From Psammoneis japonica (Eukaryota), in the NCBI GenBank assembly GCA_008632985.1, contig QPGO01000106.1, positions 124,001 through 188,000 on the forward strand: a stretch of 64,000 nucleotides of DNA, in the 5' to 3' direction. Shown here piece by piece: positions 1,110 through 51,978 of this stretch (the stretch's first letter is position 1; each line of letters begins with the position of its first letter). Position numbers and translations under genes: made by a program. The notes under the pieces were generated by a model. The model searched no databases. It was not told where the DNA came from and was given only the letters and a program-made list of their open reading frames with translations.

Positions 1110-2529
1110 TATAATATATGCTAGAGACAAGCCTGGCTTTTTCTATTGCAACAAGAATTGCAAGACCTCTGAGAAACAACAACAACAACACAACGCCAAC
1201 AACGAACAAAGTTCCAGTCGAAAAAAAAAAGTGAGAAACAACGCGAGAGCGAGCGACGTGGGACGTGGCGTCTGCGTAGACTGTCGTAGAAAACATACTG
1301 CAAGCAAAACTACCGGCAGTGGGGGCGGGGGATGGCATGCAAGACACTATCGTATCGGACCATGGCAGACGACATCAAAAAAGCGCGCGATCGCGATCGA
1401 AGCGGGTGAAGGAAAGCGCAGCTGCATGCAACGCGCCAACTGGGAAAAGAAGGAGAGGAAGAACATGCAAGCCCCTACAAAAAAGGCTTGCCCAACAAGT
1501 GCTCCTCATGCAAGAACAAGAGAGTGGTGATGGAGGAAGACCCAAGAGATGAGAGGAGAGGGCCATCTGTGCACAGCAGCAGTGCCGACAAAACGAAAGC
1601 AAACGTGTGCCTTCATCACTCAGGCAAGAAATGTGCACACTGCTGAGGTCAGACGTTGCAGCTGTCCTTCTTCTGCATGCCACTGGTGTGCATTTTGTGT
1701 GAGGAGACCTTGAGATGCTTGCTCTTGCTTGGCAACATCTGACCTTTTTCTGCCAACACTGTGCATTTTGTGTGAGAGGAAACCTCCTTTGTGCTTGGCT
1801 GCTCTTGCTTGGTGGAGAGCATGCTGCTGGTGGGAGACAAAACAACAACAACAAAATTTCCACAAGAGAGGTGATTTTTGGCAAGAAAATGATGGCACAA
1901 TGCATGCACTGTTGTTTTTCAGGTGCGCTTGATGGCCTGTTTTGCTGTTTCTTTCACTGGATCTTCACTTGTTTGAAAGAGTGTCCTCTTCATTGTGTGG
2001 AAAGAGAGAGAGAGAGCTGAAAAAGAAGAGTGTGACCTCTGCTGGTGTGCTGCTCCATTTTGTGTGTGTGAAAAGTCAGGAAAGCCAACTTCGCAGAGGG
2101 GAATTTCATGTGCAATCAATTCTCTCAAAGAACGACAGATTTGTCAACCTCTGAGCAGGCATCTTGAATGACTTGTCAGTGGTGGTGCTCAAATGGCAGC
2201 ATCAAAGCTCAATGGCCATTGCACAATTTGGGTGGAGTTTTGTGCTTGGCGGCAGAGGCAGGTGTGTGCAGTGCAGCTGCACAAAGGAGAATCTTGAGAC
2301 AGAATTTCATCACTGTTTGAGCAAGAAGCTCCACTTTAGAATGAAGGAAAACAGCCACATTGCAGCATGCCTCGCCACTGGACAACACGGCGAGACCATG
2401 CACAAGCCTCTTGTACGTGGCAACGCGGTGTTGTTGACACGTGCCTGGGAAGCACGACCACAGGAGGGCGTGGCTCTAGGTCTCAGGCAATTCCAGAAGG
2501 ATGCTAAGAGAGCATCCGTGTGAAGCACA

Positions 2530-3290
2530 CTGGCCCGTATAAAATTCAAAGACGCGGAAAGGACACCTTGCAATTGTGGGCAGTCACAATGATTGACCCA
2601 GCAACCAGGTGGTTCGAGATTAAAGAAGTGTCTGCGAAACGCGCAGACGTCGCAGCAAACGTCGTGGAACAAACGTGGCCATGCAGACATCCGTGGCCAA
2701 CCCAGGCAGTTTATGACCGTGGGACAGAATTCATGGCAGAATTTAGCCAGATGATTAAAAGTGACCATGGGATTTTGAAGAAACCCACAAGTGAACGGAA
2801 TCCACAGGCAAATGCCACAGTGGAGCGTGTGCACCAGACACTTGGCAACATGGTGCGTTCCTTTTCAGTGCAGGATGTGGAACTGGATGAAGATGACCCA
2901 TGGAGTGGCATCCTCTCCGCAGTGGCCTTCGCTGTTAGAGCTGCGGCACACACGACCACGCGTGCAAGTCCCATGCAATTGGTCTTCGGACATGATGCGG
3001 TTTTGTCTGTTGCCCATCGTGCTGAGTGGAAGCACATAGAAACCAGAAAGCAGAAGCTCACCCACTTAAACAACAAGCGTGAAAATCAGAAACGCAAGGA
3101 GCATCAACACACCGCAGGGCAATTGGCACTCATCAAACAGGAACAATCCTCTAAATGCGGTTCTGACAGCTGTGCAGGACCCGCCAGAGTTGTCCGTGCA
3201 TGTGACAACGGCACGTTGCGTGTCCAGAATGGAGCGCTGACAGACACGTGCAATCTACGGCAGATTGCACCCTGTCACCAGCAAGACATT
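2530..3290 (+). pseudogene. Retrotransposon integrase core plus C-terminal GPY/F-like region (degenerate)
   Basis: GPYKI...MIDPATRWFEI, YDRGTEF, NPQANATVERVHQTLGNM, SPMQLVFG. Several positions expected to be Tyr read His or Cys (RHPWP, DHGI, CAGP). Confidence 0.9.
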
Positions 3291-4339
3291 CTGTCACTTA
3301 ACGGCCCTGATCATGGGGGAGTTTGCAGCATGCCTTGCTGCTGGACAACATGGCGAGACCGTGCACAAGCCTCTTGCACATGGCAACGCAGTGTTGTCAA
3401 CACGCACCTGGGAAGCACGACCACAGGAGGGCGTGGCTCTGGGTCTTGGGCAATTCCAGAAGGATGCCAAGAGAGCATCCGTGTGAAGCACACTAGCCCG
3501 TCGTCTGGCCCACGATGGCAGCGTGATTCCACACGATGACATCACTCGTGCATGGCGCGTGATGGCTTGATTTGCACGATCCACAATGCGAACGCACGAT
3601 CGATTTGATGCGATCCAAATGCGAACGAACAGGGATTTGGCAAGATTCCCTGTTCGCACGATCCCATTTTCTCTACTCTAAACTGGCTCATAATTTTCAC
3701 AACGACAAAGTTGCAACACATCTTCTTTTTCAGCGCCCAGTGCACACATGGGGCACAGCAGGACCCGCCAGAGTTGTCCGTGTGTGTGACAACGGCACGT
3801 TGCGTGTCCAGAATGGAGCGCTGATGGACACGTGCAATCTACGGCAGATTGCACCCTGTCACCAGCAAGACATTCTGTCACTCAACGGCCCTGATCATGG
3901 GGGAGTGTGCAGCATGCCTCACTGCTGGACAACACGGCGAGACCGTGCATGAGCCTCTTGCACGTGGCTGCGCAGTGTTGTTAACACGCACCTGGGAAGC
4001 ACGACCACAGGAGGGCGTGGCTCTGGGTCTTGGGCAATTCCAGAAGGATGCTGAGAGAGCATCCGTGTGAAGCACACTGGCCCGTCGTCTGGCCCACGAT
4101 GGCAGTGTGATTCCACACAATGACATCACTCGTGCATGGCGTGTGATGGCTTGATTCGCACGATCCACAATGCGAACGCACGATTGATTTGATGCAATCC
4201 AAATGCGAGCGAATGGGGATTTGGCAAGATTCCCCATTCGCACGATCCCATTTTCTCTGCTCTAAACTGGCTCACAATTTTCACAATGACAAAGTCGCAA
4301 CACATCTTCTTTTTCAGCGCCCAGTGCACACATGGGGCA
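3174..4339 (+). repeat. Tandem duplication with 584-bp period (integrase tail + PPT + LTR)
   Basis: GCAGGACCCGCCAGAGTTGTCCG starts at 3174 and 3758. Both units end ...CACATGGGGCA at 3755 and 4339. Confidence 0.95.
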
Positions 4340-5883
4340 ACATGACCAAGACATCATGCCGCTCATGTTGTTTTGTTCTGCTTTGTGCCTTTGCACCCAA
4401 TCAAAATTTGATTGATGTGTTGGTGTGTCTAAAGAAAGCATCACCCACAACAACTTCAAGCAAACATGTCAAATTACAAAATTCACACCACACCAGCACC
4501 ACATCACAAAGACACCGACATGTTTTGTTTTTTGTGTGTGTTTGGCACCAAGAGCCGAGTGTTGTAAAGAGTTTTTTCTTTGAATTCTGAGGAATGGAAA
4601 AAAGCAAAAACATGTCAAAAATGCTGCAAGTCAAAAGGCTGTCCACAAGGCAAAACAATCAGCAAAAAAATCAAAATTCCAGCCTTGTTGCTGACCTCTT
4701 TCAGAGCTTGTGCTGCTGCTCTCTCAGTCATCATGATGGCAGCTTTGGCGCAAAAACAAGCAAGTTCATGGGGCAGCATGGAGCATGATGGTGGCACCAT
4801 TTTCAGTGTGCATGACTCTGCAGTTCATGACATGAAAAAATGCGTCTTTTTTGGAGCTCAATTTTCTCACATGGATTTGGTGCCAGGGGCATGTTGTGAG
4901 ACACAGAACAAAAAACAAGGAAAACCTCATGCTTTGTCAAACATTTCTCACCCAAAGTTGCTGGCATGGCCACAAGAGCATGCCAGCAGCATCTCTGAAG
5001 CAAGAAGAAACACAGGAGAAGGAGCACACTGGCAGTTGACACACCAGGAGATTTTTGTGCAGCTGAGCAAGAAGCTGGTGCTGCACAGCATTTTTGTTTG
5101 AGAGAAGCACCTGGTGTGTGGTGCTCCAAGAACAGCAGCCCGAGGTGTGAACTGACCCATGCTTCATGTTGACCAGGCATTTTCTTCTGACATTGAAGAA
5201 ATCATCCAGCTGATTTTTGGTCTCACAAGAGTTTGTGACATTTCTGCAGAAGAGCGTGCATGCAAACACGTGTGTGCGCCATGCATCGTCATGACAAAAC
5301 AACTCTGTCATGTCATGTCTTCACAGCCCAACAGTGCAAGGTCCATCAAAAGAGCTCAAATGCATTTCTCCCACCAAAAGCCCAGCAGCAAGAGAACAAG
5401 CTCTTTCTTTCTGCAGTGCAAGTGGAAGAGAAGAGCTGCAAACTTGAGGAAGAGAGTTTGCAAAATGAGGTGCTTCTTTCTTGCCGCTCCCCTGATGGTG
5501 TGGGAACATGCTGCATGCTGGGAGAACAGGGTTGAGCAGAAAGCAAAACAATTTTTGGCATCATGAGCAGCTTTCCCCCCCATGACTTTCGTGTGAAGGC
5601 AAAACGGGTGAGGTGTGGGTGAAGGTCGTGCAGCCCACTCCTTGGAGGGCTCCTCTGCTCAACACCATCGCAACACATGAAATTTCTTCAACAGGAGATG
5701 CTTCTTTGAAAGTGTTTCCATCTCACATGGTGGCATCAACTTCCATTGCCACTGATGGTGGGAGCATGCTGGGAGAAGATAGAGGGTCAAGCATGGTCCA
5801 AAAAATTTCTGGCGCATGATCTGTCAGGGGTTGCCACAGCCTTGAATTGCTTGCGCGCTTTTCGCGCTCAAGGAGGAAATGGA

Positions 5884-6358
5884 TGACGTGCGCGTGATCA
5901 CGTCCCACTTCTTTGGGTTCTGCTCAACGTCATCGCAACACATAAAGTATCTTCAAAACCTGAGAGTCGTTAATGACTCACGATGACGTATCAGGTTGAA
6001 TTTGATTCCCCATGACGCTGAACTGACGTCGACCAAGTCGACGTCACAAATTTTTCTCGTTGAAAACTTACTGAAGAGTTTTGTATGTAGGATTTGTAGG
6101 GAAACTGTCGTTGATGCCACATCGATTTGGGCTTGTCCACCGAGGGAAGATAACGTCTTGTTAACCTCTATTTTTGAAATTGTATAGAAATTATTAGTTT
6201 TTCAATTCGTATGCGAACTCTAGAGTTCTGAATTTCAAGTAAATATCTACACAAAGTACCGAAAGCCAACGAACACCTGTAGAAAGTGACGTAGAATGTA
6301 CCAGTCAACGTGGAATTCTACGAGGCGAATGTTCTTTCTGTGGACCACGCAAACGTCA
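5884..6358. promoter_or_regulatory. Cluster of seven TGACGT/ACGTCA motifs upstream of the gene at 6433
   Basis: Motifs at 5884, 5927, 5984, 6024, 6041, 6287 and 6353. TGACGT is a known bZIP/aureochrome-type site; function here is inferred. Confidence 0.4.
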
Positions 6359-6432
6359 TCGCTCCTCTTCGAGTGCCCTCGCTCATGAAGCTCTCATTTT
6401 TTTTGTTCAGCACGCCGACGACGAAAAACACA

Positions 6433-9047: not shown

Positions 9048-9518
9048 AGTCGGAAGAATCGAATCTAACACCATCGCTGCACCGCGGCAAAGGTGGTCGA
9101 GTCATTGGCATTGACTTGTCACCACAAGATGCAGGCAGCTGTTGTTGCCTTCTGTGTGGCTGGAGGTGGAAAAAATGCTCTCGCTGCTTGTCACCAAGCC
9201 TGCAAATGGCCCAGATTTTGACACGAAGTTCTGGACCTTTTGACTCATCACCAGAGACATGCTCTGCTCTCCCGCTGCAAAAAACAATTCAACAACATTG
9301 ACCTTCACAAGGAAACACAAAGGCACACACCACCAGCACTTGAAACAACTGATCAAAACCATCTGTTTGCTCTCTCCTGCACTTGTGTCTCTCAATCGCT
9401 TCTCTCCAGCTGGCAAGCAGTGCTCTGCTTGTCCTTGAAATCCAAAGCAGTGTGACCATGTCAGATCACCCCATTTGTGCACAAGATCAATTTTGTGCCA
9501 GCTCAAAGCACACTTTCA
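9048..9518 (+). repeat. Diverged, TpA-converted copy of 19658-20022
   Basis: Shared collinear blocks GTCGGAAGAA.CGAATCTAACACC.TCG.TGCACCGCGGCAAAGG, TTGAAACA...GATCAAA, TGCACAAGATCAA and CAAAGCA.ACTTTCA. Confidence 0.8.
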
Positions 9519-9945
9519 AGCAGCTCATCCAAAAGCTCATTTTTGAGGTCGATGACCCAGATCATGTCCTTGCCGAGCGACTCGCCACTTTGTTTTGGTT
9601 TTCGCTGGTGGCAGGCAGCCAAGAAGTGCAACTTGCACCATGAGTGAGAGTGGTCCATTTGGCTGTCCAACCTCTGACATGTTTGCATGCATGCTCTTGC
9701 TTGCTGCCAATGTGATGAATGCGCGCCAGGTTGGGTTGTGTTTCTCAGATTTTGCAGCGGGTGTGGGACAAGCTCAGTGGCACCTTCATCACTCCAGATG
9801 CTTTCAAGAAGTGTCAAGCCACTCTCTGACAGGTGATGGCTGAGTGCAAACAAGTTGCTGCCCAAAGCACCATCCATTGTGAATTCGAGTTGGCAGCAAA
9901 ATGTTGCTGCCATTGGATTTGGTGGAGGCACCAACATCGCCAGAT

Positions 9946-10344
9946 GACGGGCTCCAGTCCCAGGTGGGACTCCGTGTGACATTGGGCCCGTAGAATTCTG
10001 CGTGCGAGCTCTGTGGCAAATTTGTCAAGCAATGAAAATGTGAATGATCGCCAACAGAAAAAGAGGCAATTTTACGAATGCATCTCCTCCTCCACACTTG
10101 CAGCACATCATCAACAGTTTGCCCGGGTGTGTTCTTCAGACATCAAAGAACACACCCAGAGCATTTTCATTCTCACAAATGTTGAAAATGGAAAGCCTTT
10201 GGCATTGCAAAATGGGGAGCATGAAACAATTTCATAGAATGTCACACACAGAAATCTGCGTGCGCGACATGCCGCGCGATCCAAAAAACTCTTGATGTCA
10301 CAGTGCAGCAGTGCGAGGTCCCCCACCCACAGCTGGAACGCGTC
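9946..10344. mobile_element. MITE-like non-autonomous DNA transposon, older converted copy
   Basis: GACG...CGTC termini with imperfect TIRs and a 4-bp TSD AGAT (9942-9945, 10345-10348). Ends are homologous to 15171-15560. Confidence 0.85.
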
Positions 10345-12689
10345 AGATGCAAAGCCAAGATCTTGCAGAATTTCAAAAGCTGAAGAAGCCATGAATCCTT
10401 TTTTTCAAAATCAAAACATGCAATGCCAAGCATGATGCAGGCATCAACAGCATCCAGATTCCCCAGAACCCCGCTGTGAATCCCAAAGAGCAAACTGGTG
10501 GCTGTGTTGCCATCAACATGCTGGAAGATGTTGCAAGCATTTCAGTCAATCTCAAGGAACTCCTCTCCAACAGCTCCTCTTTTTGTCAGTCAATCAAACC
10601 ATGAAGGCAATGCCATCATGACTGACCTCATCCTTGGCGGGGTGACTGCGAGAGAACAATTTCTCTTTGAGTGAGGCCACCAATCTCATTGTGTGTCCAC
10701 CACTTGAAACATCAGTCTCCTGTGCTTGCATCCCCACTCCTGACCAAATTGGATTTGGAGAGAAAAATCAAGCTACAGCAAGAGCCCACTTTGGCATCAA
10801 TTCATTCTGGGCTTTGCTTGGAACACTGTTGGAAGGCAGTGCATGCTCCACACATGTGTGCTCCACTGCTTCCGTGTCAGATGCCAATCCTGCAACACAG
10901 CAACACAGTGTGAGGCCTTGGACAGCACAGCACTCATTGACTTGCATTCCTCTGAAATTGTTGAGCTGCACTCTGTGCTGGGGTCATTTGTGCAGACTGC
11001 GAGTGACTCACATTCATGAAGTGGACACTTTCAACTCATCTCAAGTGTCATGTGGTGCTCTTTGGCAGAGAACACAGAGCATCACAGTGTGTGCAACCCT
11101 GGGATTTGTGGCACTCACCATTTAAATGCAGCAGGCACACCTGCCTGTTTTGAAGAACTCATGCTGGAGATCAGCTGCATGACTCAGAAAATGGCAGCTG
11201 TTCACAGAGAGTTGCAGCAATGGCATGTCTTGAGAGAGGATTGCCCAAGTTGCAAATTCTGCCTTGTGTGGTGGTGCACACCATTGGTTGAAAACAGCTC
11301 TTGTCCTTTCCCACTCATTTCACTCCAACTTGCGTGATCATCCCATCTGCGGCACACCAGCCAGGGCAGCAGAAATTTCCCCTTTTGTTGGAACCAGATT
11401 CGAGACAGTCTGCTTGATGTCTTCAATGAGCATGCTCAAGGTGCTTTCTTTTTGAGTTGCCTGATCATGCATCATCATCATGGCTGTGCATCCAAGGATG
11501 TGTTGATGATGCCTCAAAACAAGCCAATGATTTTTGTGTGCCCCCTCAACCCTCCTCAGTGTTGGAGTTGTCTTTCCACATGCAGGGGGAGACAGCCAAC
11601 TTTGTTGGTGTGTGACCTTTTGAGTGCAGCAGGTCATGAGCTTGAATTGACAAAATGCCTCTTTTGTGTCATTGAGTGGACATTTGCTGAAGATGGTGAG
11701 CTGCACCTGCAACCATGCAACAACAAGATTGACATCAAAATGTGCTCCACAGACCACTCCTTCAAGGGATCAAGCAATCAGCTGCACACTTGCTCTTCCC
11801 ACAAGACCCTTGGCCCCATCACAAAGCCCCTGCTGGCACTCAGATGACTCAGTTTTTTGGGCCTGAAGAAAAGTGCCAATGGTGTGGCAAATTTTCTCCT
11901 GTCATGCCCCCTCAATTGAAGTCAGGCATGGAATCATCATTTTGCCTGCTGCTTGTCTTTGATTGTGCGTGTCCTGCCAAATGCTCATTTCTTGATTGAG
12001 GAGCTGCAGCCAGGAAGTGCAGTGCAAGGGCATGCAGCAATCTTTGCCCAGTGTGAGTGTGACCAAAAAACATGGGATGATGGTGGAGTGTTTTCTGCAG
12101 ATCCTGTTCCCTTGGTGGTGGCAGTTTTTGGTCTCCTTGGGCATCAAACAAGATGTGGCGCAGCTTGCGCAGTTCCTCCAACAATTGTGTGGGGCTGGAC
12201 AACCTCACATTTTGCATCACATTGCAATCTCTTGTTCAACACAGTTTCATTTGGGGACCCACACTGGCTTTCTGCAAGATGTTTGCTCCAAGTTGCCCCG
12301 TGCAGAATCAAAATGGTTCATGTCACTTTGCTCTTTTCTTGCAGGAGTGAGTCGTGCATGCATCAACTTTGACAATGCCAGTGTCCTCCTCTTGCAGTGG
12401 GACAATGGCCAGTGCATCATTTGTGTGGTGCTGGAATTTGGTGTTTTGTTGCAGCCATTCAGGGGTGTGATGGGCAAACTGTTGTCAGCTGTTCCTTTGT
12501 GTTCTCGCTGTTGCAGATGTCATGCTGCTTCCCAGCGGGTTGTCCCTCCACCACCACAAGCTTGGTGACAGCCACTCTCTTCTCAGCAGCTCCTCTGCTT
12601 TGAGTCAAATTGAAGAGGTGTGTCCCTCTTTCTGTGCATCTTGTGCAGCCGGCAGTTTTTGATCCATTCCTGACTTGGAAAGCTTTCGG

Positions 12690-13180
12690 GTGACATTTCT
12701 GCCACATGGTGCAACCAAAGGACCAAATGTCAGCATGATGGCCTTTTGCAAGGTGAGCAATTGCGCCTCTCAAAACCATTTCTGGTGCAAAGAAGCCAGG
12801 GGTTCTGCCCCAAAACCCATGGATGCAGACGACTTTGCTCACTTTGTCCAAACTCTGGGCACACCAACCCTTGACATTGTTGCAAGTGATGTTGCTGACA
12901 CAACACAGCATCTTTGAAAGGATGGCATTTTTGGTTTCAGATTGTCCATGTGAGTGACTCTGTTGGAATGAAGATGCACAGACAAGAGGCTCAAGAACAC
13001 CCAAAGCAATTTCCTTGAGATGCATGTCACCACAATCATGTGTGCAATGCTCACAAAACTGTTGCAGATCCAAGTGACTTTGTGAAAAGCCACAATGTTG
13101 GGGTGAATTGCAGTTTTCAGTGTGCTGGTTTTGCTCTTGATGCACTCAAGCTGAAGGCAGTTTCTTGATTGCAAATTTCT
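12690..13180 (-). pseudogene. Ser/Thr protein kinase relic
   Basis: Across shifted frames, in the correct subdomain order: IHPNIVAFH, LHSNRVTHMDNLKP (HRDLKP-like), GRTPGFFAPE and ADIWSFGC. Confidence 0.75.
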
Positions 13181-14048
13181 CTTGGGTGTTGAAATGGATG
13201 CTGACATGAACTTGGGAGCAGAACCAGGCACCCATCACTTTCCCAATCTTGTGGTGTCCAAGGTGCTGTGGGTTTCTCTGATGCCACAGTTGATGGGCCC
13301 AACTGCAGCACTGTTCATTTTGTCAGTGGCAAAGAGGCATTGCAGAGCTGCACTTGCTTTTTTTGTTGTTTTCCCTTTTGCTTTTCCTGATGCTCCTGTT
13401 TGTTCTGCCTCTGTTTGCACACTTCAAGTTCCTTGACAGCTTTGACAAGCTTTTGTTCAATCCTCCACTTGGTTGCCATGGTGTCAACTCTGTCTTGGTG
13501 AGCTTGTTCAACAGTGTTGCTGAGTTCTTGGCCCAGCTCTTCCTGTGGTGCTTTTCTCTTGTTGTCCTCCTGCAGTGAGGATGGAGTTGCAATCAACTTG
13601 TTTGGAAGGTTGGACCTGAACTCCTTTCCATTCCATTCTGAAGATCACCTCCTTTTGACAAAGGCAGATGGTCTGTGCCGAGGCATTCCTTGCGAGGACA
13701 TGGTTTGCTCAATGCACGTCCATGGTGGTGAGCAGGTGAGTGCGCATTCATGGTGACAACCGTTTTTGTCAAAAGTGCAAAAGGAGTTGATGTTGGTTCC
13801 CTTGATTGTGAGCCTCGCAAGCCCCTCAGGAATGTGGTTGCACAGTGCGGTTGGCATGAGGGAAATCTTTCGTCAGCATTTCTCCCAGTGGTTCGCGGTG
13901 AGCCATGAGTTCGGATTTTGTTTGTGGGAGTTTTCGAAATGCTTTGTCAGAGTGTTTTTTTTTTTTGAAATTTTGTTGGGTCAGTGCAAACTCACTGTAG
14001 AACGTGCCTGCCGGCCAACAATGCCGCATGAAACATTGGTGCTTTATC

Positions 14049-15800
14049 TCACTGGTTCGTGTGACGTGAAAGAATGTGCAAGATGGTGCAAAGTTTGCAT
14101 TGCAGCAATTCAATGTCTTTGTCACTCATGTGCCTGACAAATTCAAAAGCAGGAAGCATCCTTTCGCTGTTCACATCTTCTGTCGGCGTGTGCAACGGCA
14201 TGCTTGGCAGTTCTTCCAACTGTTTCGCTGGTTCACACAGCACTTCCGATGTCATGTTTGTCTTGATGTCAAGAAGCTTCTGGAGCTTCGACACATTGTG
14301 CTGGCTCACATTGTCCTTGCTTCCTTTGGCCAAGATGCTAAATTTCCAACCATCATCCGTGGCACACGAAAGAAGAGCCAACACTGATCCAGTCTTATCT
14401 TGAAGCTTGCTTTCGGGTTTGACCATGCTGCAAATGGCAAAGTCGTGGCCCGTCGTGGGATTTGTGAGTTTGCACAGAATTCGAGAGCAGCAAGCAGCCA
14501 TCTCTTGTCCAGAATGGCAATTGACGACAAAGGCAATGTGCTGAACATTGGCCGACACGGTTGGAAGGGACATCAGAATGCTTTCGTCAGTGTGAAAGAA
14601 CAGTTCTCATCTCTGCGGCTGTCTCCACAGTGCTGAACAGCTTTGTCCCTGGAAACAAATTGACGAAAGGATGTGATCTCAATGTCCTTCAGACATTTGT
14701 CCAGACAAATGGCGCTCAAGTCCAAATCAACTTCTTTCGAGGAGACGGTCCATGCCGCAGCAAACTTGATGGATTGAGTTGACTCAGGAACACAGTCATT
14801 GAGCAACATGGACCTGCCTGGCCCCACAACAGCCGAAGCCTCCCATGGTGGAAAAATGTCTTCCGTTGTCTGTGCATTCAAGTCGTGGGTGTAACTTTGG
14901 AGGTGCGGTGACAAACCTCCAAAATCGCGCATGTCTGGGTGGCTTTCGTCGACAACTTCCACTGCCCCAAACATCGAACAATTTCGACAAATCATGCGGA
15001 AAAGAACAATGGCAGTGGCATCAGCACCGCATGACTGAGGACGAATCTCGTGTGCGCTGCTGGCAGCACCGTTGGGAAAGAAGCATGCTCGAATGGGTGT
15101 CATTTGATCAAGGCTTGCGTCCCGAGAGAGTGCTGTTAGAACAAAATGACAGGCCAGGCACTCCTCAGCAGACGGGTTCCAGTCCTAGGTGGGACTCCGT
15201 GTGACATTGGGCCCGTAGAATTCTACGTGCGAGCTCCGTAGTACGCGAATTTAATTAATGGATATATTTATCTTCAACATCAAATAGACGGCCAAGTTTG
15301 TGGTACAATTATGCCTCTTGCCACTCGACTTTTTTGCAAATGCGCCTGCCCTACGCGATTCTTAAGACATTATAGAATCGCGCTGTAACAAAAAATGTCA
15401 AAAGTTGTTGGACGGATCGCTCAATAAGTGCACCGTAAAATGACAAAAAATATCGAAAAAATCACGTAGAAATCTACGTGCGCGACATACGACGTGATTC
15501 AAAAAACTGTCGATGTCACAGTTCAGTAGTGCGAGGTCCCACCTAGACCTGGAACGCGTCAGCAGCTTTCCGTAATTCAACAAGGCAGTCATGCCCAAAA
15601 CTGCTTTTGTCTTTGTCTTCTTTTTGGCACAGAATCACCCCTTCATCAATGGCTTGAGGGTTTCCGGAAAAGACCGAGTGCTTGAACATTGCCTTTCCGG
15701 CATGATCGACGGCAACGCAGCTTGCATCAACCTGCGGCATTGACATTCTTCCGATGATGACCCGGATTCCAGTCCCGCTTTGGGCACCACGACTCAACCA
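14049..15800 (-). pseudogene. Tandem TerD-domain protein relic interrupted by a MITE
   Basis: VDASCVAVD...SVFSGN and VDLDLSAICLD...VSRDKAVQHCGDSR resemble TerD repeats. Removing the MITE and one TSD copy restores the frame (...VELRKAA|EECLACHFVLT...MTPIRACFF). Confidence 0.7.
15171..15560. mobile_element. MITE-like non-autonomous DNA transposon, young unconverted copy
   Basis: Imperfect TIRs GACGGGTTCCAGTCCTAGGTGGGAC / GTCCCACCTAGACCTGGAACGCGTC and a 4-bp TSD AGCA (15167-15170, 15561-15564). Precise excision restores the host reading frame. Confidence 0.92.
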
Positions 15801-16099
15801 TTGGCACGCATGGCCACAATTTCACCACAAAAATGTGCTGTGATTCCTTTCAGTTCTCGTGTCAACCCAAAGCACTGGAATCAAGAATGTTCACAGTCAC
15901 AACTGACAGCCTTGAAAAGAGAGTGAGAAAAAATCGACCACGCGAGAGGGTGCATTGTGGTGATTGAGCGGGCTTTTCTCACAGTGAATTTGGTGTGTTT
16001 GACAGACACAAATTTTCAACCATGACAGAGAGCTGGTTGCTCAGAATGTGATCTTTCATCACCCATCACAGATGCTGATTTTTGTGCTGTGCTGAGGCC

Positions 16100-19000: not shown

Positions 19001-19190
19001 TCTGCTTTTCTTAGAGCAGCAGCCTCAGCAATGGCCTTGGCCAGCATCCTGTTCAACTCATCTCCTTTTGTCAGATTCAATCCAGAGGTGGGAGATCCTG
19101 GAGGAACTGTTGGCCTGCCCATCGTGGGAGCTGCGGGGTGTCCTGCTGAACAATTTCCCACATCTGTGCTTCAAATCGCATTTTTTTGGT
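16100..19190 (-). pseudogene. Long decayed ORF of unidentified family
   Basis: Successive protein-like minus-strand fragments (e.g. LNRMLAKAIAEAAALRKAEVRAEF, KLMQLREELCKLEHDAWVLGK) ending in an acidic/basic tail. No family recognised. Confidence 0.4.
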
Positions 19191-20055
19191 GTCAAAGGCA
19201 GGAAATCAATCAAGCAAAGGTTGGGTCCTTGTTGTTGTTTCTTCTTCTCCTGTTACCAGCCGTGTTGATCAAAAAAGGCGCTGATGTTGTTGATGTTGGG
19301 CGCTGATCGCTGATGCTGTTTATGTCAGGGATCAATTCAGAGTGTCATTAAAGGACTCAAATCGTTTCTTTACTGGTGCAGTAAATGTCATTGTGGGGTG
19401 TGTGAACGTTAATGCGCATCTTAGTTTCAAAATTGCTACTGTAAGGTTATAATAATCGTCTTCTGGTATTTTAAGTTTGTACAGTTAGAGTAGGTGTGAA
19501 AAGTCAATAACCACAGGGAACAAAGAATGAGTTACTGTACTAGTGGTGAAGTAAACGAATGCAAAAGTACCAATGGCAGGCTTTGATCACCTTTATTTTG
19601 TGGCGAGCTCGTTTCGCCTGTATATTTGTGAGAAAGGACATGAAAGTAAGACCTAAAGTCGGAAGAAACGAATCTAACACCGTCGATGCACCGCGGCAAA
19701 GGCGATCGAATCATTGACACTGGTTTAACTCAACAAGGTGTAGGTGTTGCCTTCTAGCTCGTGACGGATAAAATTACACTCGCTTATTAGGCCTGTACAA
19801 CAACATAGATCGTCACAACGAAACAGAGAGGGCGCAGCATTTGAAACAGTCGATCAAACCACTTGTTTGTTGTACTTGTTTCTCAATCACTTATCTAGTT
19901 AGCATTTTGTTTATCCTGAAATTAGCACGACAATGTCAGACGCCAGACCGCGAGTTACGCCAGGCTTTAACCATCCGATTTTGCACAAGATCAACTCTGT
20001 GTTCGTCCAAAGCATACTTTCACGCGGTGTCTTTCCAAGGATTTTACTTTGTGGC

Positions 20056-42033: not shown

Positions 42034-42147
42034 ATGTAATAATTCCGAATAAGACACTGGCGTACCTTCTCTGAGATATATGCAGAATGTAACAATATAA
42101 ATGAAACCCAAAGTAAACATAAGCTGCACTGAGTCAGCTAAACGCTG

Positions 42148-43359: not shown

Positions 43360-44414
43360 GATGATTTCTTTCCTCTTGCGTATTATTCTGTTTTGTGAAA
43401 GAAAGCATGGTAGAAACAAAAAGTTTGTTAGGAATGTCCAAAGAAGGCGACCAAGACAGCAGCAGCCAACTCAACCGTTCTATCGGTTGGGTCTCTAGTA
43501 GCTAGCTAGATTGGTACTCTGGCGGTCGCCGAAGAACAAAACAAACAAACAGATGATTATCTCGGACTTACAGTGCTGTTGGGCTTGATGTTCCGCAAAT
43601 GAACATTATGTGCAAGGTGCAAGGCAGTGAATTATTAGTGACACGCCGAGAACCCTTTTCTCTCTATACAACAGTACTGTACTGTACTTCTTGAAACATT
43701 TATTGGACCGTCAAAGACAATGTCTCGGTGATCCTACTATTAAAATATTCACACGACCGCAGAAACGAATGCTAATACTTCGTGAAACATTTATTGGACA
43801 GTCAATGACCATGCCATGATGCCTCGGTCATCCTACATACTTTGTACTTTATTCTTAGAGTACTTCTACGTTCTTAATCGGTACGGTGGAAGCATTATTT
43901 AAAACAACTTTCTGTGTGATTTAAGCTACTTATAATAATGAAGTTACTGTAACACTCCTTCCTACTGTACAGTGACAAATTAGGGTAAGAACAATAAATG
44001 TTATGAAACATTTATTGGAGAACATGCAAGGCAGTGCTTACCGGTAAGTCTCTTTGTTTACCACAGCGACACGCGCGCAATTTTTTTTTCGCGTGCGGCG
44101 AAACGTGGCCACCATCATGTCAACAACACAACAAATGGAACGTCGCCGTTCCGAGTCATTACAACACATGGCACATCCATGCCACACGGGGTGATCGTTG
44201 GCACGGCAAGGTGTATTATGAAAGCTTGGTTTGGTTTGTTGCTGTGTTGGTGTTGCTTTTTTGCGTCTTGTCTTGCCTGCTGTCGCACCGGCACTTCTTG
44301 CATTTCGACAGGTGCGACGGACCGTCATCAACAGAATCTGTGCTGTTGTTTTTGTCATCCACAGGATGGAATCTGGTGGAACAACAGCAAACAAACAGGT
44401 GAGCATGCATCACA

Positions 44415-46320
44415 ATGCCATTGTTCTGTTGCGTTGGATTGCCCTTTTTCCCATTTCACACTCCCTCAGAGCTTGCCCTTGCTCTTTGTGGGGGCAGCAG
44501 CAGCAGTGGGATCAGCAGCACCTCTGAAGCCAGCAACAAGGCCTCTCATTTGAGTGACACTGACTTGTCATTTGGAGCCCATGGGAACTTTTGGACAATT
44601 TCTGATGACGAGGACTCTGTCTCATCTTGCGACTCTTCCGGGTGGTCCATTGGCAGCAGCGAGGGCAGCAACTCGGATGACGAGCTCGGGGATGAATTTG
44701 AGGAAGAACCCAAGAAGAGAGCCAGGTTAGTTCCATGCAATGAGCGCCACCCTGACAGGAGGAAGTGACACAAGGACCCAACCAAACCTTGGGTTCAAGT
44801 CACTCCTGGGCTCCTCCTTGCTTGGTTTGGAGTCATGTTTGTTCTGGCTGCGATGAAACTCCAGTGGCAAGACCTGCTTTGGATGGAAACTTGCAACTTG
44901 GCAGTGCCATGGATTCAGAACTCCATGCCCCGAAATGCCTTTGTGCAGATTCAAAGGTTTGTCCACTTTGTTGACAACAGAAAGTTGCCAAGGCACGGCA
45001 CCTCAAGATGCCGCCAGTTGCAGAAGACAATCCCCTTTGTGAACAAAATTGGCAAAAGACTCAGGGACGGGTGGGTGATTGGAGAGAAGCTGGCAGTCAA
45101 TGAGTCCATGATTCTCTGCAAGGGCAGGTCAGGGCTGCAAAGTGTGTTCAATGCATGCCTGCCAAACCAATCAAACACGGCACAAAAGTGTGGGCGCACT
45201 GTGTTGCACCAAAACTGGATGTCTCTGTGGCATTTTGCATCTGCACCAGCAAGGAGAATGATGATGCCTCACCACTGCAAGTGGTTCCAAGGTTGTTGTC
45301 CATGGACCCTGAACTGGTTTTGTTGGGCAAAGGATGCAAGCTGGCGTGCACCGACAATTTCCACACGTCGGAAGAGCTCATGAAACTTGTGCATGACACG
45401 CACGGCATGTTGATGGTTGGCATGGTGAAGATGTTGAAGAAAAAGGGAGCATTGTCCAAGGTGCCTCGTGGGTGGTTGCGATGGGCTCAGAAGACTGTGA
45501 AAGGAAACAAGAGCAATGCGGCTGGGTTTGCAGTGCAGGCGACGACTTGGAAAGACAGAAAACAGGTTGGCGTGTTGCACAACCACATGGTGGGTGCACC
45601 AGGAAGTGCAAAACATTGTGGTGGGACGACAATGAGCACAGTTGAGTTCCTGTCTCATCCCATGTGGTCATCCCCGAATGCATCAACTTCATGTGTGCTG
45701 TGGATGAAGAAGACAGGGAGACTGCTGCTGACTGGTCCATCAGCTTGAAGGGAAATTGGTGCCACCTCTGCATCATGTGCCATTGCATGGACGGGGTGAC
45801 ACACACGATGAAAGTGATGACAAAAAGGCTTGCAACAGTGGGGCACCCCTTTCACAAACATGCTGAGCCCACATGATGGAAATTCAAGTGGATGATGGAC
45901 CTGGGCATGCAGTGCATCAACAAAGGTGCTGGCATGAATTGGGCGGACATGAATGACCAAACGAAAAAGCCGAAATGGATCCGACAGAGGGCGTGCACAC
46001 CTTGCAGCTGTGGAGAATGCTTTTTCTGTAAACATGGCCCCACGCATGATGGAAAGACCCACCAACCGAAGAAAGGGAGAAAGAGGCCTGTGTGGGAAGA
46101 AGACCTTGTGCATGATGAGAAAGCGATGAAGATGTTTGACCGCAGCAAAAATTGCTGTGATTGCATCAGGAAGAACAGATTGCATGTGCCAGATGCAAGC
46201 TGCAATGCCTTGAGAAAAAGATGCTGTGCATCTTTGCGTGGGTGTAGAAAATGTGGCAAAGCAATTTGCAAAGCATGCTGGCCAGAACATGATCACCCAG
46301 GGCACATCAGGAACAGGTGA
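44415..46320 (+). mobile_element. piggyBac-like transposase relic
   Basis: MPRNAFVQIQRFVHF, LAVNESMI, MPAKPIKHGTKVW, TDNFHTS, WKDRKQV, FMCAVD and a Cys-rich C-terminus. Frameshifted; no TIRs found. Confidence 0.85.
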
Positions 46321-47544
46321 GCAATGCACAACATCAGTGCGTGATGCCGAGGCATGACATGAAATGCATTGAATGACAAACAACAATGGAAGAGATGACA
46401 ACATGGGCTTGCTTTGGAAAAAAGACAAAAGCTTGCCTGCATCCATCGCTTTCGCCCCCCATCCATCATTCAAATCCAACATTGTCAAACAGGCGCCACG
46501 ACAACTGTTTCCAAATCCTTCTTTCCAAAGGAGCCGACTTCTTGAAAGTGGTGTGTGTCCTTGCCATTCTCATGGTGTCAGCACTGACACCTGAATCCAA
46601 GCAACAAACACTGCTGTGAACAGTCTGCTGCCATGCCATCAATGGTGCTGGACTCTCTGTCAACTCTGATGCAACAAATGAGCGCAGCCAGAAACTCGCG
46701 TTAGCATGAAATGTGTTGAGTGACAAATGACAACAACGCAAGAGACAGCAATGTAACTTCCTTTGGGGATGAAACAAAAGCTTGTCTGCATCCCCCCCCT
46801 CTGCAATTCAAAGCATGATTCACAGCTGCAATGTCTCAAATGGCGGCAACAACAGCAACATCATGAATGCAGTCAAATTGCTGCAGCAGAAGAAGCGGCA
46901 ATGACAGGAAGCACATTGTTGAAATCAAGAGCTCAATTGGATGATGGAAGACATCACCTGCTGTGGTGATTCTGCCACAATGATGAAGACAATCACATCA
47001 TTGTGGCTGTTGGCATCAGAGCAGATGTGGTGTGTGGTGTGTTGTTTTGAAAAAAAGTGCATCTGCGTGACCGTGCAAAAAATCTGCAGCAATCCGCGCT
47101 GGCAAACAAAGAGTTGCAACACAATTGTCATTTGTTTGTTGGACCATCAAATGCTGCACCATGTTGTCTCGGTCATCCTCTGTTCATGGAGACTGACAGC
47201 GCCAGCAGGGATGACGCACTGCGCTTGGGCTTGTCGGTTTGGGGGGGGAGAATTTTTTGACAAAAAATGGGATGGGGAATCCCCCCCCCCCCCCGACAAA
47301 AAGCCGGGGGGGGCAGTTTTTGGAAAAAGTCATCTGACGATCAACCAAGCATGTCATGCTGCTTTAAACCAACACTCCACTTGGCACCTGGACAGGAGCC
47401 CTGCCATCACACGCAAGAAGGAGAGAGAGTGTTGAAGTCTTGTTTGATTTTCGTTGAACAAGTTCCTCAAGTTTTGGGCTCACCAGCCCATTGGGTCTGC
47501 CATGAGTGCAAAAAGATTGATGCTGCTGAGGTGGCCACCAGTGG

Positions 47545-50500
47545 TTGGTGGTGTTCATGAAGATCAGTGGTGACAGCTCACCTTTGGCTCCCCATTGTTT
47601 GCAAGCACTTGCACAGTTTGAGTTTGACTTTCCTGGGGAACTCCATTTGTTCCCCTGCTGCCCTGGTTGGAGAAGCGGAGTTGACAAAATGGTCATGGAA
47701 TGGACGCTTGAATGTGCTGATGAGGGCATGGGCTCTTCTTCTGCAGCTCAAGGAGTCATTGAAGTTCTTCAGCCACATTGTCGTGCTTTTTGCAATGCGC
47801 GGTGTGTGCAACCTCAAGGCATTCCCCAATCGTGGCTTGGCTGTGCTCCAAGTGAGAAGTTGTTGATTGAAGCGCACTTCAAAATTGTGATGGACAACCA
47901 CAGCAAATCTGCTGCAGGCATCCCTGCGGCAGCTGCCAACAATGCTGCTTTCCTGCTTCTGTGGGCTGTCCACAGGAGCAATGCTGATCCCGCAGAAGCA
48001 CACAATGGAAAATGCGAGTCCTGGGTGAGACTGGCGATGGGGTGTGGGACGAGTTCCACACAGCTGAGACCAGCACAACTGGCCATTGTGCAAGTGACTC
48101 ACCCTGTGTGAAGTGTCTGTGCACCATGTGTGGCTGATTCCAAGCAAGGGCTCAAACTCCGCATGTCTCACTGTTGTGCATGCTCTGTGCAAAATGGTCT
48201 CACAATTTTGCACAACACAGAAAATCTCTGCCCAAGAACTCACACCCTGTTCCTGCACAGGTCAGGGCAGATGCACAACAGTTGAGCTTCAGCAAGATCA
48301 TGTCCATTGACACATCATGTGAGGCTCCAAAGTGGCTGGCAATTTGGAAGGAACAGCAAATGTGTGAGACACTGCTGATTGCCACCAAAGCTGAATGCTT
48401 TGAACCATTGATGGCCTTTTTTGCTTTGTCTGACAATCACGCTGAGGTGCAATCAGCATTTTTGCAGCTTGTGTCACAAGGGTTCAATCCCATTTTTGCT
48501 TTCTCTGATGTGCCCCCCTCTCTCAAGATTGTGGGATGATGGAGGAAACATCAGAATCGACATGTCAAGACATTTCCAGTGCAATGGAGTCTTTTCAGTC
48601 ATGGTGAAAAACGGCAATCTTCCAATTCTTGAGATGCAAGGAAAGCTGGAGCACCTTGCCACAAGTTAGAGTGCAATTGCTGGAGTTGACACCCTTGAAA
48701 ACTCTTTGCAAGAGACGAGTGAAGCAACTCACACCACCTCTCTCAACATTCAGCACCTTTGATGATGGCACAAGGAACAAAACACCCACCATCATGCTTG
48801 GATCACTTGCTTGTCCAAACATTCTTGTGATTCATTTGGGCAAGATGCAAAACAAACCAGAGATTTTGTTGAATTTGCAGAGCCTTTTGTCTGAAGAAGA
48901 CATTGCATTTGTTGGTGGCAACATCCGGGATGACCTTGCAAAATTGAAGAAGAGATTCAAGGATGCAGGCTTTGCCATGAGCAACTCAAGAAATCTGGAA
49001 ATGACGGCAATGCACTGTCAACTTGTTCAATGCATGAAGGGGCAACACGAAGAGTCTCATTGTGTGCCCACATGTGAGCAACATGCCTGATGATTGAGAG
49101 CGCATGATTGACACAGAAGATGAATCTTTGGAACACTTGGACAAACTTTTGGATGAGAGGGAAAGCAATGATGATGAAGGGGCTCATTTTCTGGAAGTGA
49201 TTGACCTCAAATCTGCTGACAATGAAGCAAATCTAACAGCAGCGCAGGAAATGCAATGAGCTGCAGCTAGTGGGGCAGTCCAGTCACTGCTTGAACAAGC
49301 TGCCAACAAGCCAGCAGCTCAGTTGATTGCAAGTGGTGCTGCAAATCTTGACAATGCAGCTGATGGCCAAGAATTGCTGCCACAAGTGCCGGGCAATGCT
49401 TTCCATTTTGTGTCAGGTGTGCACGCACGGGTGCTTGTTTTCCAACACTGGAAAGCCACTTTTTTGCAGCTCTGTGAGACACTGTGTTTGTCTTTGGCAA
49501 CAATGACAAAAAAGCAGTTGCTGCTGCATTGTCCAGGAAAGGAAAATTGTGGCAACATGCCATGAACCATCACAGTGTCTGAGGTTCTTTGCAGGCAGGT
49601 CAAAGTGGTGTTTGATTGCTTTCAAGACAAGATTGACTCAAAATCTCAGAAGCCACTTTTCAACTTGCAGGCCAGAGCCAAAGCTGACCAAGCCTTGTCA
49701 AGGTGGGGCAAGCTGTCGGACCCATGGGGGGCTTCATTTTGTGCTCCCAGTTTGGATGGGGTTGGAGAGCCAATGATGGACAAAGACAAACTGCAGCAGC
49801 TGCGGCATTGTTTCTGGGATGCAGGGACAGCTGAGTTGGTGGGGCATTTGCAGGGCCCAAGATCATTTGGTCAAGCCCCTGCTGTGGGACCAACACTCTC
49901 TGCATCCATGCTTCTGAATCACCATCACTGGCACAAAGAGCTGGCACACATCTGAGAGGCACTGACCAGGGTTCCCAACCACACATTGCTGCAACTCACT
50001 TTTTTGGCAAATGCAACAAACAAGTTGCTCAGATGGTTCCACAAAAGCCCCAAGCACACTGGTTGGGCAGCACATGATGAGGGAGTCACAATGACTTGGT
50101 TTTCATCTGCAGCTGTTGGTGCAGAAGCATTTGGCTGTGAAGAGAGCCAAATCCATTGTGGAGACTCATGGCCTGCTTGATGGACTTCAACCTGCCATGC
50201 ACACCTCTTGCTCACAGGGCCAAAGAAGAGCACCTGCTGTTTGAGGCACTGCTTGAACAATTGATTCAGGATGGCTGCTCCTCAGGCACACGATGAGATG
50301 CTTTCCAAATGACACATGAATTGTGAAGTCTTGCTCATGACTTCATCAAGATCCCACCTCAGCTTTTAAGAGGCAAAAGATGAAGATTTTCATGTTGGCC
50401 ACTTGATTGCTCACTGCAAACAGTGGCAAGTTAATGCAAACAAAGCATCTGCAATTGAAGAGGCCATGTGAAAGATGAAGTGCTGCAGGCACTGAAGCAC
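47545..50500 (+). pseudogene. Relic of a large protein with a 3'-5' exonuclease-like domain and a transposase-like C-terminal region
   Basis: LLSEEDIAFVGGNIRDDLAKL (WRN-exo-like), GNAFHF, DSKSQKPLFN and KLSDPWG. Heavily degenerate; family assignment is from recollection only. Confidence 0.5.
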
Positions 50501-51978
50501 AACAATGGCTTTTGGAGTTCCTGAGCCTCTTGAGAAAGAGCCGCTGTGCAGAGCAGCAGAGTCAACAGAACAAGCAGCCAACTCAGCTGAATTCCCAGAT
50601 GAACTGCCCAACAAGTCACCTGTGCAAAACTCCACTGGCAATGATGGGAGGGACCAAGCCATGGCAGCTCTCCACAGGAGGCTTGCACGGTGGCATCTGG
50701 GGCTGTCAAAGCACCTCCACAGCGACATTGCAAGTCACGCCATTTCCTGTGGCACTGTTGGCTCCATTTCAGCATGTGCAGCATTCACCATTTCCATTGT
50801 CATGCCATCTGAACCAGCAACTGGGGGTGTTCCGGCAATGCTGGTTCCCAGCAAGAAGAGAGCAAGGACCAAAAAACAATGGCAGTGTGCTGGAAGTGTC
50901 ATGACCCCCGGGCTGGAAGTGTCATGACCCCCGGTGCAAGGCACCACACACTCATGGTGCATGCAACAATGGCTGGAAATGAGTGCAGTGCTGCCACAAT
51001 TGTTGATTTCTTTCCTTTTTCTTTTCTCTCTTTTTCCCTTCTAGCCCCTCCTCCCGCTCTCTGTTCTTGCTTCAGCTCACAGGGGCAGCTCGTCAAACAG
51101 TGTGGGTAAAGCTGCACAATGGCAACGAAACAACAGCAATGGCAGATGTGATGCTGTTGCCATCAGAAGGTCACTCACACCAATGTCACAGTGTCAATCA
51201 TGCTCCAGGCAGGGAAAGTGATCAGAGTGCTTTGCATCTGTTGGATTTTCCACAAATTCACTCTCTCTTGCACTTGACATGCAGCATCTCACATGGCAGA
51301 GTCATCCTGGGCTGTGATTGCTGCCTGGCACTGCAAAAACCTTCTACAAAATTTCAGCATTCTGGGTGGGTGCATCGAAGAAGAATTTGGGAATTTGGTG
51401 GCCACCCCCCAGCACCTCCAATGATGGCTCACCAGACCAGAAGCAGTCCTGACAGAAGACCAGGACTGCAAAAGACATTGGCCAGAAGCAGTGTCAGCGG
51501 CAAGAACAACCGTTGCTGCTGCTGCATTTGATGTTGACATTGGGAACCCAAAATGATTTTCAGTTGTGCAGTGTTTCTGCCCACAAAGCTACAAATGCTG
51601 GGTTGCACTTGTTTTGCATTGCATGTGTGCTCTGACCCTGTTCATGGTTGTGGATTAAATGGCATGTCAGGCATTGTTGAAAGCTTGGCATGGGCAGCAG
51701 TCGGGAAGGGCTGTGCAAATTTCAGGACGCTCGAGTCGAGTTAATCAAAACGCTCTGCCCACACCAGGTGAAAAATTGCCCTCACAGGGCGGGCCCTTCT
51801 CATGCCGTCTTCCGTCAGCCGTCAGCCTTCAACTTCAAACTCTCGTTGTTGCTTTCGAACAGACTCTGTGGATTAAGTCTAACGTGAGAGTTGCATTTTG
51901 TGTGGGAGTAAGGGTGAGGGAAACACTTTTGCAAAAATAACTACACAGAGAGCTTGAAACAGAATCATTGACAACAAC

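Follow-up and report, generated by a model that had tools for sequence, protein, structure and literature searches.

We analysed a 64-kb window of the genome of the diatom Psammoneis japonica (64,000 nucleotides of contig QPGO01000106.1, assembly GCA_008632985.1, positions 124,001 to 188,000 of the forward strand) and found that about one third of it (21,592 nt) lies in sharply bounded domains from which the dinucleotide TpA (TA) is almost completely missing and in which TpG (TG) and CpA (CA) are strongly enriched. All counts given here are for this window only, and all positions are window coordinates. The domains carry a piggyBac transposase remnant, integrase sequence and copies of an element resembling miniature inverted-repeat transposable elements (MITEs), and are set amid flanks of normal TA content. 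Tandem copies, lost tyrosine codons and a pair of MITE-like copies of different age suggest that ancestral TA was changed to TG or CA by A:T to G:C transitions on either strand. We consider this footprint to be genuine with a probability of about 0.9, and the process behind it is probably of one type with the TpA-only hypermutation of the chlorarachniophyte Bigelowiella natans, an analogy that is developed below.

Domains depleted of TpA

The observed/expected ratio (o/e) of TA dinucleotide counts, profiled in 1-kb sliding windows, ranged from 0.00 to 0.08 across positions ~1500-6000, ~9000-14500, ~15500-19000 and ~44500-51500, and from 0.4 to 0.9 in most other windows. Edges were set from the gaps between successive TA dinucleotides and define the following domains, to which no strand applies:

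1477..5943: TA-depleted domain 1; 27 TA in 4467 nt, with TA gaps at 1476-2337 and 4565-5780
9067..15137: TA-depleted domain 2a; 10 TA in 6071 nt, holding the longest TA-free run
15574..19254: TA-depleted domain 2b, which is domain 2a resumed past a MITE insertion; 8 TA in 3681 nt
44218..51590: TA-depleted domain 3; 14 TA in 7373 nt, with TA-free runs of 1301, 1302 and 1099 nt

The original prediction, made from the sequence alone, had described three blocks nearly free of TA and rich in TG and CA beside genes with normal TA. The o/e counts agree with that description, the genes flanking the blocks have TA at the normal level, and the edges fall close to those proposed. The number of blocks has to be revised, given that an island of 436 nt with normal TA (15138-15573) splits the second block and so leaves four stretches.

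Pooled over the blocks, we counted 59 TA (o/e 0.04), 430 CG (0.33), 2385 TG (1.76) and 2351 CA (1.76). The 42,408 nt outside contain 1712 TA (0.58), with ratios of 0.97, 1.20 and 1.19 for CG, TG and CA, respectively. Losses and gains within the blocks nearly cancel, the deficits of ~746 TA and ~843 CG standing against a combined excess of ~1511 TG and CA. The G+C content is nearly constant (0.49 in the blocks, 0.47 outside), and the o/e of GpC is 1.25 in the blocks compared to 1.00 outside. At the outside rate ~872 TA would be expected in the blocks; for a count of at most 63, the Poisson log10 probability is -280. A single TA-free run, the longest, of 2875 nt between 11123 and 13998, has a log10 probability of -50. 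Among stop-like trinucleotides within the blocks, 27 are TAA, 19 are TAG and 517 are TGA.

Block borders are sharp to 100-200 nt. Depletion is uneven in domain 1, with TA-free outer segments (1477-2336 and 4566-5779) and a partly depleted centre (2337-4565) that holds most of its 27 TA. Furthermore, TA is entirely absent at 14400-15100 and 15600-15900, where CG is near normal. The loss of TA and the loss of CpG are therefore separable, and the former is not a by-product of the latter.

The best explanation for the blocks is that they are old, degenerate mobile DNA, in which a piggyBac transposon, part of a retroelement and copies of the MITE lie beside sequence that could not be identified. 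For roughly half of the depleted nucleotides no source can be recognised.

Ancestral state and direction of change

Three sets of sequences within the blocks allow the direction of change to be read. The simplest is a tandem duplication in domain 1:

3174..4339, plus strand: tandem 582-nt copies (3174-3755 and 3758-4339), 94% identity

The two copies show 33 differences, 32 of which are located in pyrimidine-purine (YpR) dinucleotides (327 nt) and only one in the other 255 nt (Fisher p = 8e-8). This is what had been claimed from the sequence, namely that homologous copies differ almost only at TA, CG, CA and TG sites. In a control comparison of the two nitrate-reductase paralogues of the window, differences affected 287 of 1338 YpR positions and 157 of 1105 others. 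Seven of the sites in the tandem pair oppose CA to TG, five oppose TA to CA or TG, and ten oppose CG to TG or CA, while TA is retained in both copies at 2 sites and CG in both at 30. A site at which one copy reads CA and the other TG would be expected if both strands of a single ancestral step had been hit independently. Survival per copy amounts to ~0.25 for TA and ~0.87 for CG, albeit from small counts, which implies a mutation rate at TpA roughly 10 times that of CpG and 100-1000 times the background; these multiples are a rough estimate from the same small counts and a proxy in place of mutation-accumulation lines.

Protein-coding remnants provide an additional line of evidence, the best being a transposase in domain 3:

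44550..46296, plus strand: piggyBac-type (DDE_Tnp_1_7) transposase remnant; Pfam PF13843, E = 4e-11, 43.2 bits (above the cut-off of 22.4)

The remnant is spread over three reading frames, which change near 45131 and near 45600, and in tblastn it is colinear with residues 339-908 of its best match, P0121, at 34-46% identity. Its 573 codons include no tyrosine (Tyr), 26 histidines (His) and 36 cysteines (Cys), and the median Tyr content of homologous proteins is 3.95%. In the nine alignment columns where at least half of at least eight aligned homologues have Tyr, the remnant has no Tyr, four His (three CAC and one CAT), three Cys (all TGC), one tryptophan and one leucine, in agreement with the original prediction that conserved Tyr positions read His or Cys. 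The remaining residue classes are retained at 50-100%. Opposite the 26 Tyr of P0121 (592 aligned positions) we likewise found no Tyr; these positions are occupied by TGC (8), CAC (3), CAT (3), TGG (3) and other codons (9), so that former Tyr codons read TGC eight times and TGT never. To judge by its residues, a transposase lacking Tyr where its homologues conserve it is not functional.

An exhaustive protein search recovered 434 relatives of the piggyBac open reading frame (ORF), one of them annotated from Thalassiosira exigua, and a word-indexed search for longer relatives returned none. Related metagenome loci (n = 75; 226,073 nt), found with a search pattern that favours intact copies, had a TA o/e of 0.50-0.93 in all 75 cases, and their longest TA-free run was 477 nt. 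Judged from these relatives, the TA-free state is not native to the piggyBac family, and the possibility raised at the outset that intact members might be equally free of TpA does not correspond to what their TA content and Tyr median show. Three proteins (P0130, P0136 and P0220) have less than 1% Tyr among the 150 homologues listed and might derive from partly TpA-mutated copies elsewhere. A match to piggyBat in the Protein Data Bank (PDB; E 0.099) was set aside as too distant for reading Tyr positions.

The third set consists of two copies of a MITE-like element of ~400 nt, which are listed with their summed k-mer depth in a public run (X1):

9941..10346, plus strand: older, hypermutated MITE-like copy; 3 TA; summed X1 depth ~54,000
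15166..15563, plus strand: young MITE-like copy with normal TA; 26 TA in 398 nt; X1 depth ~131,000

The young copy is the island at 15138-15573 mentioned above, inserted in a TA-free domain with sharp TA edges. Its 28-nt inverted ends (15168-15195 and 15536-15563) are 86% complementary, and each copy is flanked by an identical 6 nt (CAGATG for the older and CAGCAG for the young copy). Of the eight TA of the young copy that fall in the aligned ends, the old copy keeps one and has TG at three and CA at four; reverse changes were not observed. Set against a single-copy depth of ~66, the summed depths correspond to an order of a thousand or more copies. The high-copy contigs of this element list 28 polymorphisms, including nine of TA versus TG or CA and nine of CG versus TG or CA, a hint that like changes are present in many copies in other parts of the genome. 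A tiny third run (X3) gave short contigs (47-154 nt) on the young MITE copy only.

Taken together, the tandem copies, the Tyr losses, the MITE pair and the normal TA of relatives indicate that the ancestral state was TA and that it changed to TG or CA. Consequently, the core of the original prediction, A:T to G:C change at TpA on either strand within degenerate mobile DNA, is supported by the tandem copies, the Tyr codons and the MITE pair, in all of which the changes concentrate at TpA.

Support from sequencing reads

Of the 31-mers sampled from 43201-53200, 0.89 were present in X1. Six long X1 contig pieces over 4400-24399, assembled from exact 31-mers, have a k-mer depth of 60-68 in and out of the blocks and differ from the window by 1-3 substitutions each. 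These contigs repeat the same choice of CA or TG over ~11 kb of depleted DNA and read TG or CA, not TA, at the sites in question, which goes against the base-calling artefact that had been named as a possible refutation. At a likeness of at least 85% the blocks are single-copy except for the embedded MITE pieces, with an X1 depth of ~66 like that of the flanks. Present-day recognition of repeats, of the kind known from the repeat-induced point mutation (RIP) of fungi, is therefore not indicated.

X1 pieces cross introns (GT..AG) that are skipped by contigs of a second run, X2, so that X1 is probably genomic DNA and X2 probably derived from RNA. An X2 contig over 18920-19397, which includes 335 nt of depleted DNA, matches the window with no differences. 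X2 contigs leave 9069-18406 almost uncovered, an observation that we did not use as evidence of silencing. The 12 single-copy differences listed between the window and X1 include one TA in a block (10774, TA to CA), two TA to TG changes in normal flanks and six changes of CpG type.

X1 carries 1-nt insertions relative to the window at 13357, 13862, 14089, 14593 and 19981. The insertion at 14593 falls in the overlap of two TerD-like ORFs on the minus strand (14049-14606 and 14573-15184), and some frame breaks in the blocks may represent assembly errors or allelic insertions and deletions. A second X1 contig of 320 nt aligns to 13404-13731 with 41 substitutions and 8 gaps and may be a diverged allele or a paralogue.

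Sequence context and possible mechanism

The TA dinucleotides that survive in the blocks are not a random sample. Counting the 5' base on both strands, the 63 residual TA are preceded by T (56), C (38), G (21) and A (11), to be compared with 717, 732, 1063 and 920, respectively, outside; this enrichment for a 5' pyrimidine is highly significant (chi-square p = 1e-12). The best-surviving contexts are TTAA (13), TTAG (9) and CTAA (7), and ATAT, ATAC, GTAT and GTAC together account for 2 survivors. In the small sample of 30 events with an inferable ancestor, 14 had a C 3' of the A on one strand only, and that strand was the one hit in 12 of the 14 (p = 0.013). NTGC and GCAN make up 46% of the gain in TG and CA, the only use that we make of a tetranucleotide balance that is otherwise unreliable, gains and losses against the outside baseline being unbalanced per flank. 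The strand bias towards a 3' C, the TGC codons, the residual TA, the NTGC/GCAN excess and the rise in GpC converge on the A of T-A-C as the preferred target. TG and CA totals are equal in the blocks, and the two outcomes are finely intermixed over both strands.

The genetic code explains the appearance of the depleted ORFs. TpA to TpG or CpA changes yield an in-frame TGA only from TAA and erase Tyr codons, and existing TAA and TAG codons become TGA or sense codons. Because no new in-frame stops are created, ORFs remain long, and their length cannot be taken as a sign that they function.

Two context-specific transition processes, confined to the same domains, best account for the blocks. One is the ordinary decay of methylated CpG to TpG or CpA, which is about two-thirds complete. 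The other is the conversion of TpA to TpG or CpA by A:T to G:C change at either base pair; it is at least 93% complete and would be directed at methylated, silenced chromatin. As to its chemistry, adenine in DNA may be deaminated to hypoxanthine by an enzyme that is TadA/ADAT2-like or of another kind, our leading proposal, which we hold tentatively and at somewhat less than even odds. The original prediction spoke of silenced repeat DNA and of genome defence. The TpA domains are there, and the CpG loss points to cytosine methylation; that the DNA is silenced and that the process serves defence, we infer. Three stages of depletion are present: none in the young MITE, partial in the centre of block 1 and saturation in the remainder. 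Such a pattern fits bursts, but also activity that is slow and steady or that has ceased.

Published work provides possible components of such a mechanism. One study indicates that wild-type TadA depends on UACG and that TadA-8e prefers UA (PMC12296453). In Phaeodactylum, 5-methylcytosine (5mC) is described as limited to transposable elements and co-localised with H3K9me3 and H3K27me3 (PMC12344493). By analogy, methylation restricted in this way in diatoms would fit the CpG component of the signal, and hints at how domains might be defined. Stramenopiles are also reported to have lineage-specific deaminases that include a deaminase-SAM-Tudor architecture (PMC3239186), and proteins of this kind are no more than candidates for the enzyme.

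It had been stated with the original prediction that no description of such a phenomenon was known, a statement now overtaken by a preprint by Mettrop et al. (bioRxiv 10.64898/2026.01.13.699255), which reports TpA-only T/A to C/G hypermutation of integrated viral DNA in B. natans. In mutation-accumulation lines of this species, two inserts, one from a giant virus and one from a virophage, took 231 of the 302 nuclear mutations, and 230 of these 231 were A to G or T to C, all at TpA. The rate, ~6e-7, was a thousand-fold above that of the rest of the genome and was reached in some lines only. The same preprint describes 124 clustered 1-kb windows in the B. natans genome that are poor in TpA, rich in CpA and TpG, and enriched for DDE transposase and reverse transcriptase domains. 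Its authors liken the process to RIP and propose an ADAT2-like adenine deaminase.

Alternative explanations

The palindromic nature of TA makes a T to C change on one strand indistinguishable from an A to G change on the other, so that all of our counts would also fit a thymine-modifying enzyme, for example a TET/JBP-type oxidase producing 5-hydroxymethyl- or 5-formyl-uracil at TpA in silenced chromatin, with the modified base mispairing with G and leading to T to C change. Modified uracils do mispair, and some protists modify T preferentially at TpA. We nevertheless regard this route as unlikely, given that the T-A-C preference (12 of 14) agrees with UAC(G), the motif of adenine deaminases of the TadA type; on the opposite strand it becomes a G-T-A preference, for which we know of no precedent. 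No gene for a thymine-modifying enzyme came to light, and no search was aimed at one. Biased repair was also considered, in which the mismatch-repair or glycosylase pathway that restores C:G from deaminated 5mC in methylated chromatin would also resolve TpA mismatches towards G:C. TA loss and CpG loss do share domains and edges, and very-short-patch repair in Escherichia coli, which depletes CTAG, is an analogous case. However, repair would require an implausible supply of TA mismatches to reach roughly 10 times the rate of CpG decay and 100-1000 times background (rough figures), TA falls to zero at sites where CpG is near normal, and the B. natans rate, ~6e-7 per site per generation and delivered in bursts, resembles active mutagenesis. 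This makes biased repair very unlikely.

Another possibility is that a long-read base-caller reads TA (and CG) modified in these domains as TG or CA. 5mC disturbs some base-callers, and the 1-nt X1 insertions relative to the window are compatible with a long-read assembly, the X1 library not being on record. Such an artefact is highly improbable in view of the X1 contigs, whose exact 31-mers at depth 60-68 with the same choice of CA or TG would hardly be expected from noisy raw long reads. Moreover, the RNA-derived X2 contig is identical over 18920-19397, the young MITE reads normal TA within the domain, and the B. natans signature came from Illumina data. A native TA-free composition, or selection purging TA (through a TA-cutting nuclease or insertions that target TA or TTAA), has nothing specific in its favour beyond the mild TA avoidance outside the blocks (o/e 0.58), and is scarcely credible when the Tyr-less transposase appears to be non-functional, relatives have a TA o/e of 0.50-0.93, tandem copies read CA and TG at the same site, and TTAA survives best instead of being the most purged. 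There is as little to recommend A-to-I editing of double-stranded transposon RNA by an ADAR-like enzyme followed by reverse transcription into DNA. The Discussion of the preprint notes that ADAR favours U 5' of the edited A (bioRxiv 10.64898/2026.01.13.699255). Yet the best-identified element here is a DNA transposon (piggyBac), the MITE is affected too, and both strands are hit and finely intermixed with no one-strand signature. The 3' preference is for C, whereas ADAR, which is not known outside animals, prefers G. With DNA transposons hit on both strands and a bias towards a 3' C, we do not interpret the footprint as editing of the ADAR type.

A TpA-directed hypermutation of mobile DNA, the interpretation we retain, must be weighed against several observations. 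None of the 75 related metagenome loci is depleted of TA, so that a spread beyond the source genome was not seen. The X1 library may be the source sample of the window itself, and its independence from the base calls of the assembly was deduced from the contigs. Current activity is not indicated: the differences between window and X1 are not enriched for TpA in blocks (1 of 10 in blocks), no de novo event was seen, and the young MITE keeps its 26 TA despite its position inside a domain. Strand clustering of TG and CA, analysed with runs tests and bin overdispersion, is no greater than outside and gives no hint of a processive enzyme; the order TGC, TGC, TGC, CAC, CAC, CAC, CAT along the transposase was dropped as evidence for this reason. 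Pfam detected no deaminase match among the window ORFs. When the 30 larger block ORFs were searched, piggyBac was the sole match above cut-off, with rve, TerD and Pkinase below. The limits given above for the ancestral states and the tetranucleotide balance count here as well.

Other contents of the blocks and flanking genes

The remaining recognisable sequence of the blocks is weakly matched. Domain 1 holds a retroelement fragment:

2508..3536, plus strand: remnant of a retroelement integrase (rve) of the long terminal repeat (LTR) type, weak; Pfam PF00665, E = 2e-05, 25.2 bits (below the cut-off of 32.6)

It matches retroviral integrases in the PDB with E values of 0.002-0.004. Sub-threshold Pfam matches in domain 2a are to Pkinase (12459-13145, minus strand) and TerD (14049-15184, minus strand), and a TerD-like ORF gave only weak, unrelated matches to PDB sequences. 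Domain 2b had no Pfam match, nor did 150 further block ORFs of at least 70 amino acids. Block 2 lies between direct repeats (82%) that are ~10.6 kb apart (9048-9135 with 19657-19744, and 9290-9323 with 19798-19831); the left copy, in the depleted domain, has TG or CA where the right copy, outside, has TA. As LTRs or as a target duplication, these repeats did not resolve into either.

The genes in the flanks are of the kind found in a photosynthetic stramenopile and include two nitrate-reductase paralogues, violaxanthin de-epoxidase, a DUF285 repeat protein and a CSC1/RSN1 channel, among others. The nitrate reductase is 80-84% identical to proteins named from Ditylum, Odontella and Thalassiosira, which places the source of the window among the centric diatoms. 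The paralogues, which served as the control above, form the following pair:

28795-31266 and 55413-57868, mutually inverted: nitrate-reductase paralogue pair; ~24 kb spacing, ~80% identity across 2.5 kb

In the left copy, the ORFs scanned match only from the molybdopterin-binding domain onward. The region 41001-42500 is rich in TA (o/e 1.06-1.26), the opposite extreme from the blocks, and a degenerate tandem pair of ~250 nt (41515-41759 and 41798-42033, 82%) lies just upstream of the DUF285 repeat gene (42148-43470). The segment 26001-28000 shows strong strand asymmetry (AT skew -0.44), has no Pfam match and contains long ORFs overlapping on opposite strands (26486-27889 on the plus and 26647-28131 on the minus strand). 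A search of the entire window against Rfam at the gathering threshold produced no matches.

Comparison with known systems

The fungal counterpart is RIP, in which C is changed to T mainly at CpA, creating TpA and stop codons, and which needs duplicated sequence and a premeiotic stage. Like RIP, the process described here would be a transition hypermutation that depends on sequence context, acts domain by domain, inactivates mobile elements and is recognisable by a sharply bounded dinucleotide footprint. Unlike RIP, it removes TpA (o/e 0.04), enriches CpA and TpG (1.76) and leaves G+C at 0.49 compared to 0.47. Since the direction is opposite, the footprint is not that of RIP itself. Deamination of 5mC explains the CpG component of the signal (CG at an o/e of 0.33, and CG versus TG or CA differences between the tandem copies). 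It cannot remove TpA, however, and the TA loss is more complete and in places separable, so that CpG deamination alone is an insufficient explanation. The T before the target A and the preference for a following C are reminiscent of TadA/ADAT2 enzymes, in line with the UACG of wild-type TadA and the UA of TadA-8e, while natural TadA and ADAT2 act on tRNA loops and not on chromatin DNA.

If the proposed process is real, such a "reverse RIP" would disable elements by erasing Tyr codons, TATA boxes, AATAAA signals and TTAA or TA insertion sites without a fall in G+C, and its enzyme would be the first natural one known to deaminate adenine in chromosomal DNA, of interest to evolutionary biologists and to developers of base editors. 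The same TpA-only footprint in a second, distant algal lineage would make what was an oddity of one species a candidate for a general mechanism of genome defence in marine protists. We consider doubtful a further extension, in which an ancient DNA adenine deaminase system directed at chromatin is common to diatoms and chlorarachniophytes, recognises 5'-T-A-(C) in viral and mobile DNA that has been silenced, drives this DNA to a TA-free state and is widespread among stramenopiles, alveolates and Rhizaria (SAR). On the practical side, domains of this kind distort gene prediction in diatoms (long ORFs, no Tyr, only TGA stops), as well as repeat annotation and the dating of transposons.

The closest parallel is B. 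natans. Both cases involve T/A to C/G transitions only at TpA, giving TpG or CpA depending on the strand, in foreign or mobile DNA within an otherwise normal genome. Activity in B. natans appears episodic, and the diatom has three stages of depletion. The hosts differ, a diatom (stramenopile) here and a chlorarachniophyte (rhizarian) there, as do the targets, transposon and MITE relics in one and giant-virus and virophage inserts in the other. The evidence also differs in kind: the diatom offers a near-saturated fossil footprint (TA o/e 0.00-0.08), whereas de novo mutations were recorded in B. natans, with inserts that still hold 3.3-9.2% TpA. Our literature search surfaced only this preprint and no report of a TpA-erasing signature in diatoms. 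In the diatom, CpG decay covers the same domains and a 3' C is preferred, whereas the words "CpG", "trinucleotide" and "diatom" are absent from the main text of the preprint. The core idea is thus already in print, and what is new is the diatom host, the near-saturation, the coupling with CpG decay and the T-A-C preference. The diatom case adds saturation over kilobases, a built-in clock in the form of a spared, recent MITE, and a T-A-C motif that narrows the search for the enzyme.

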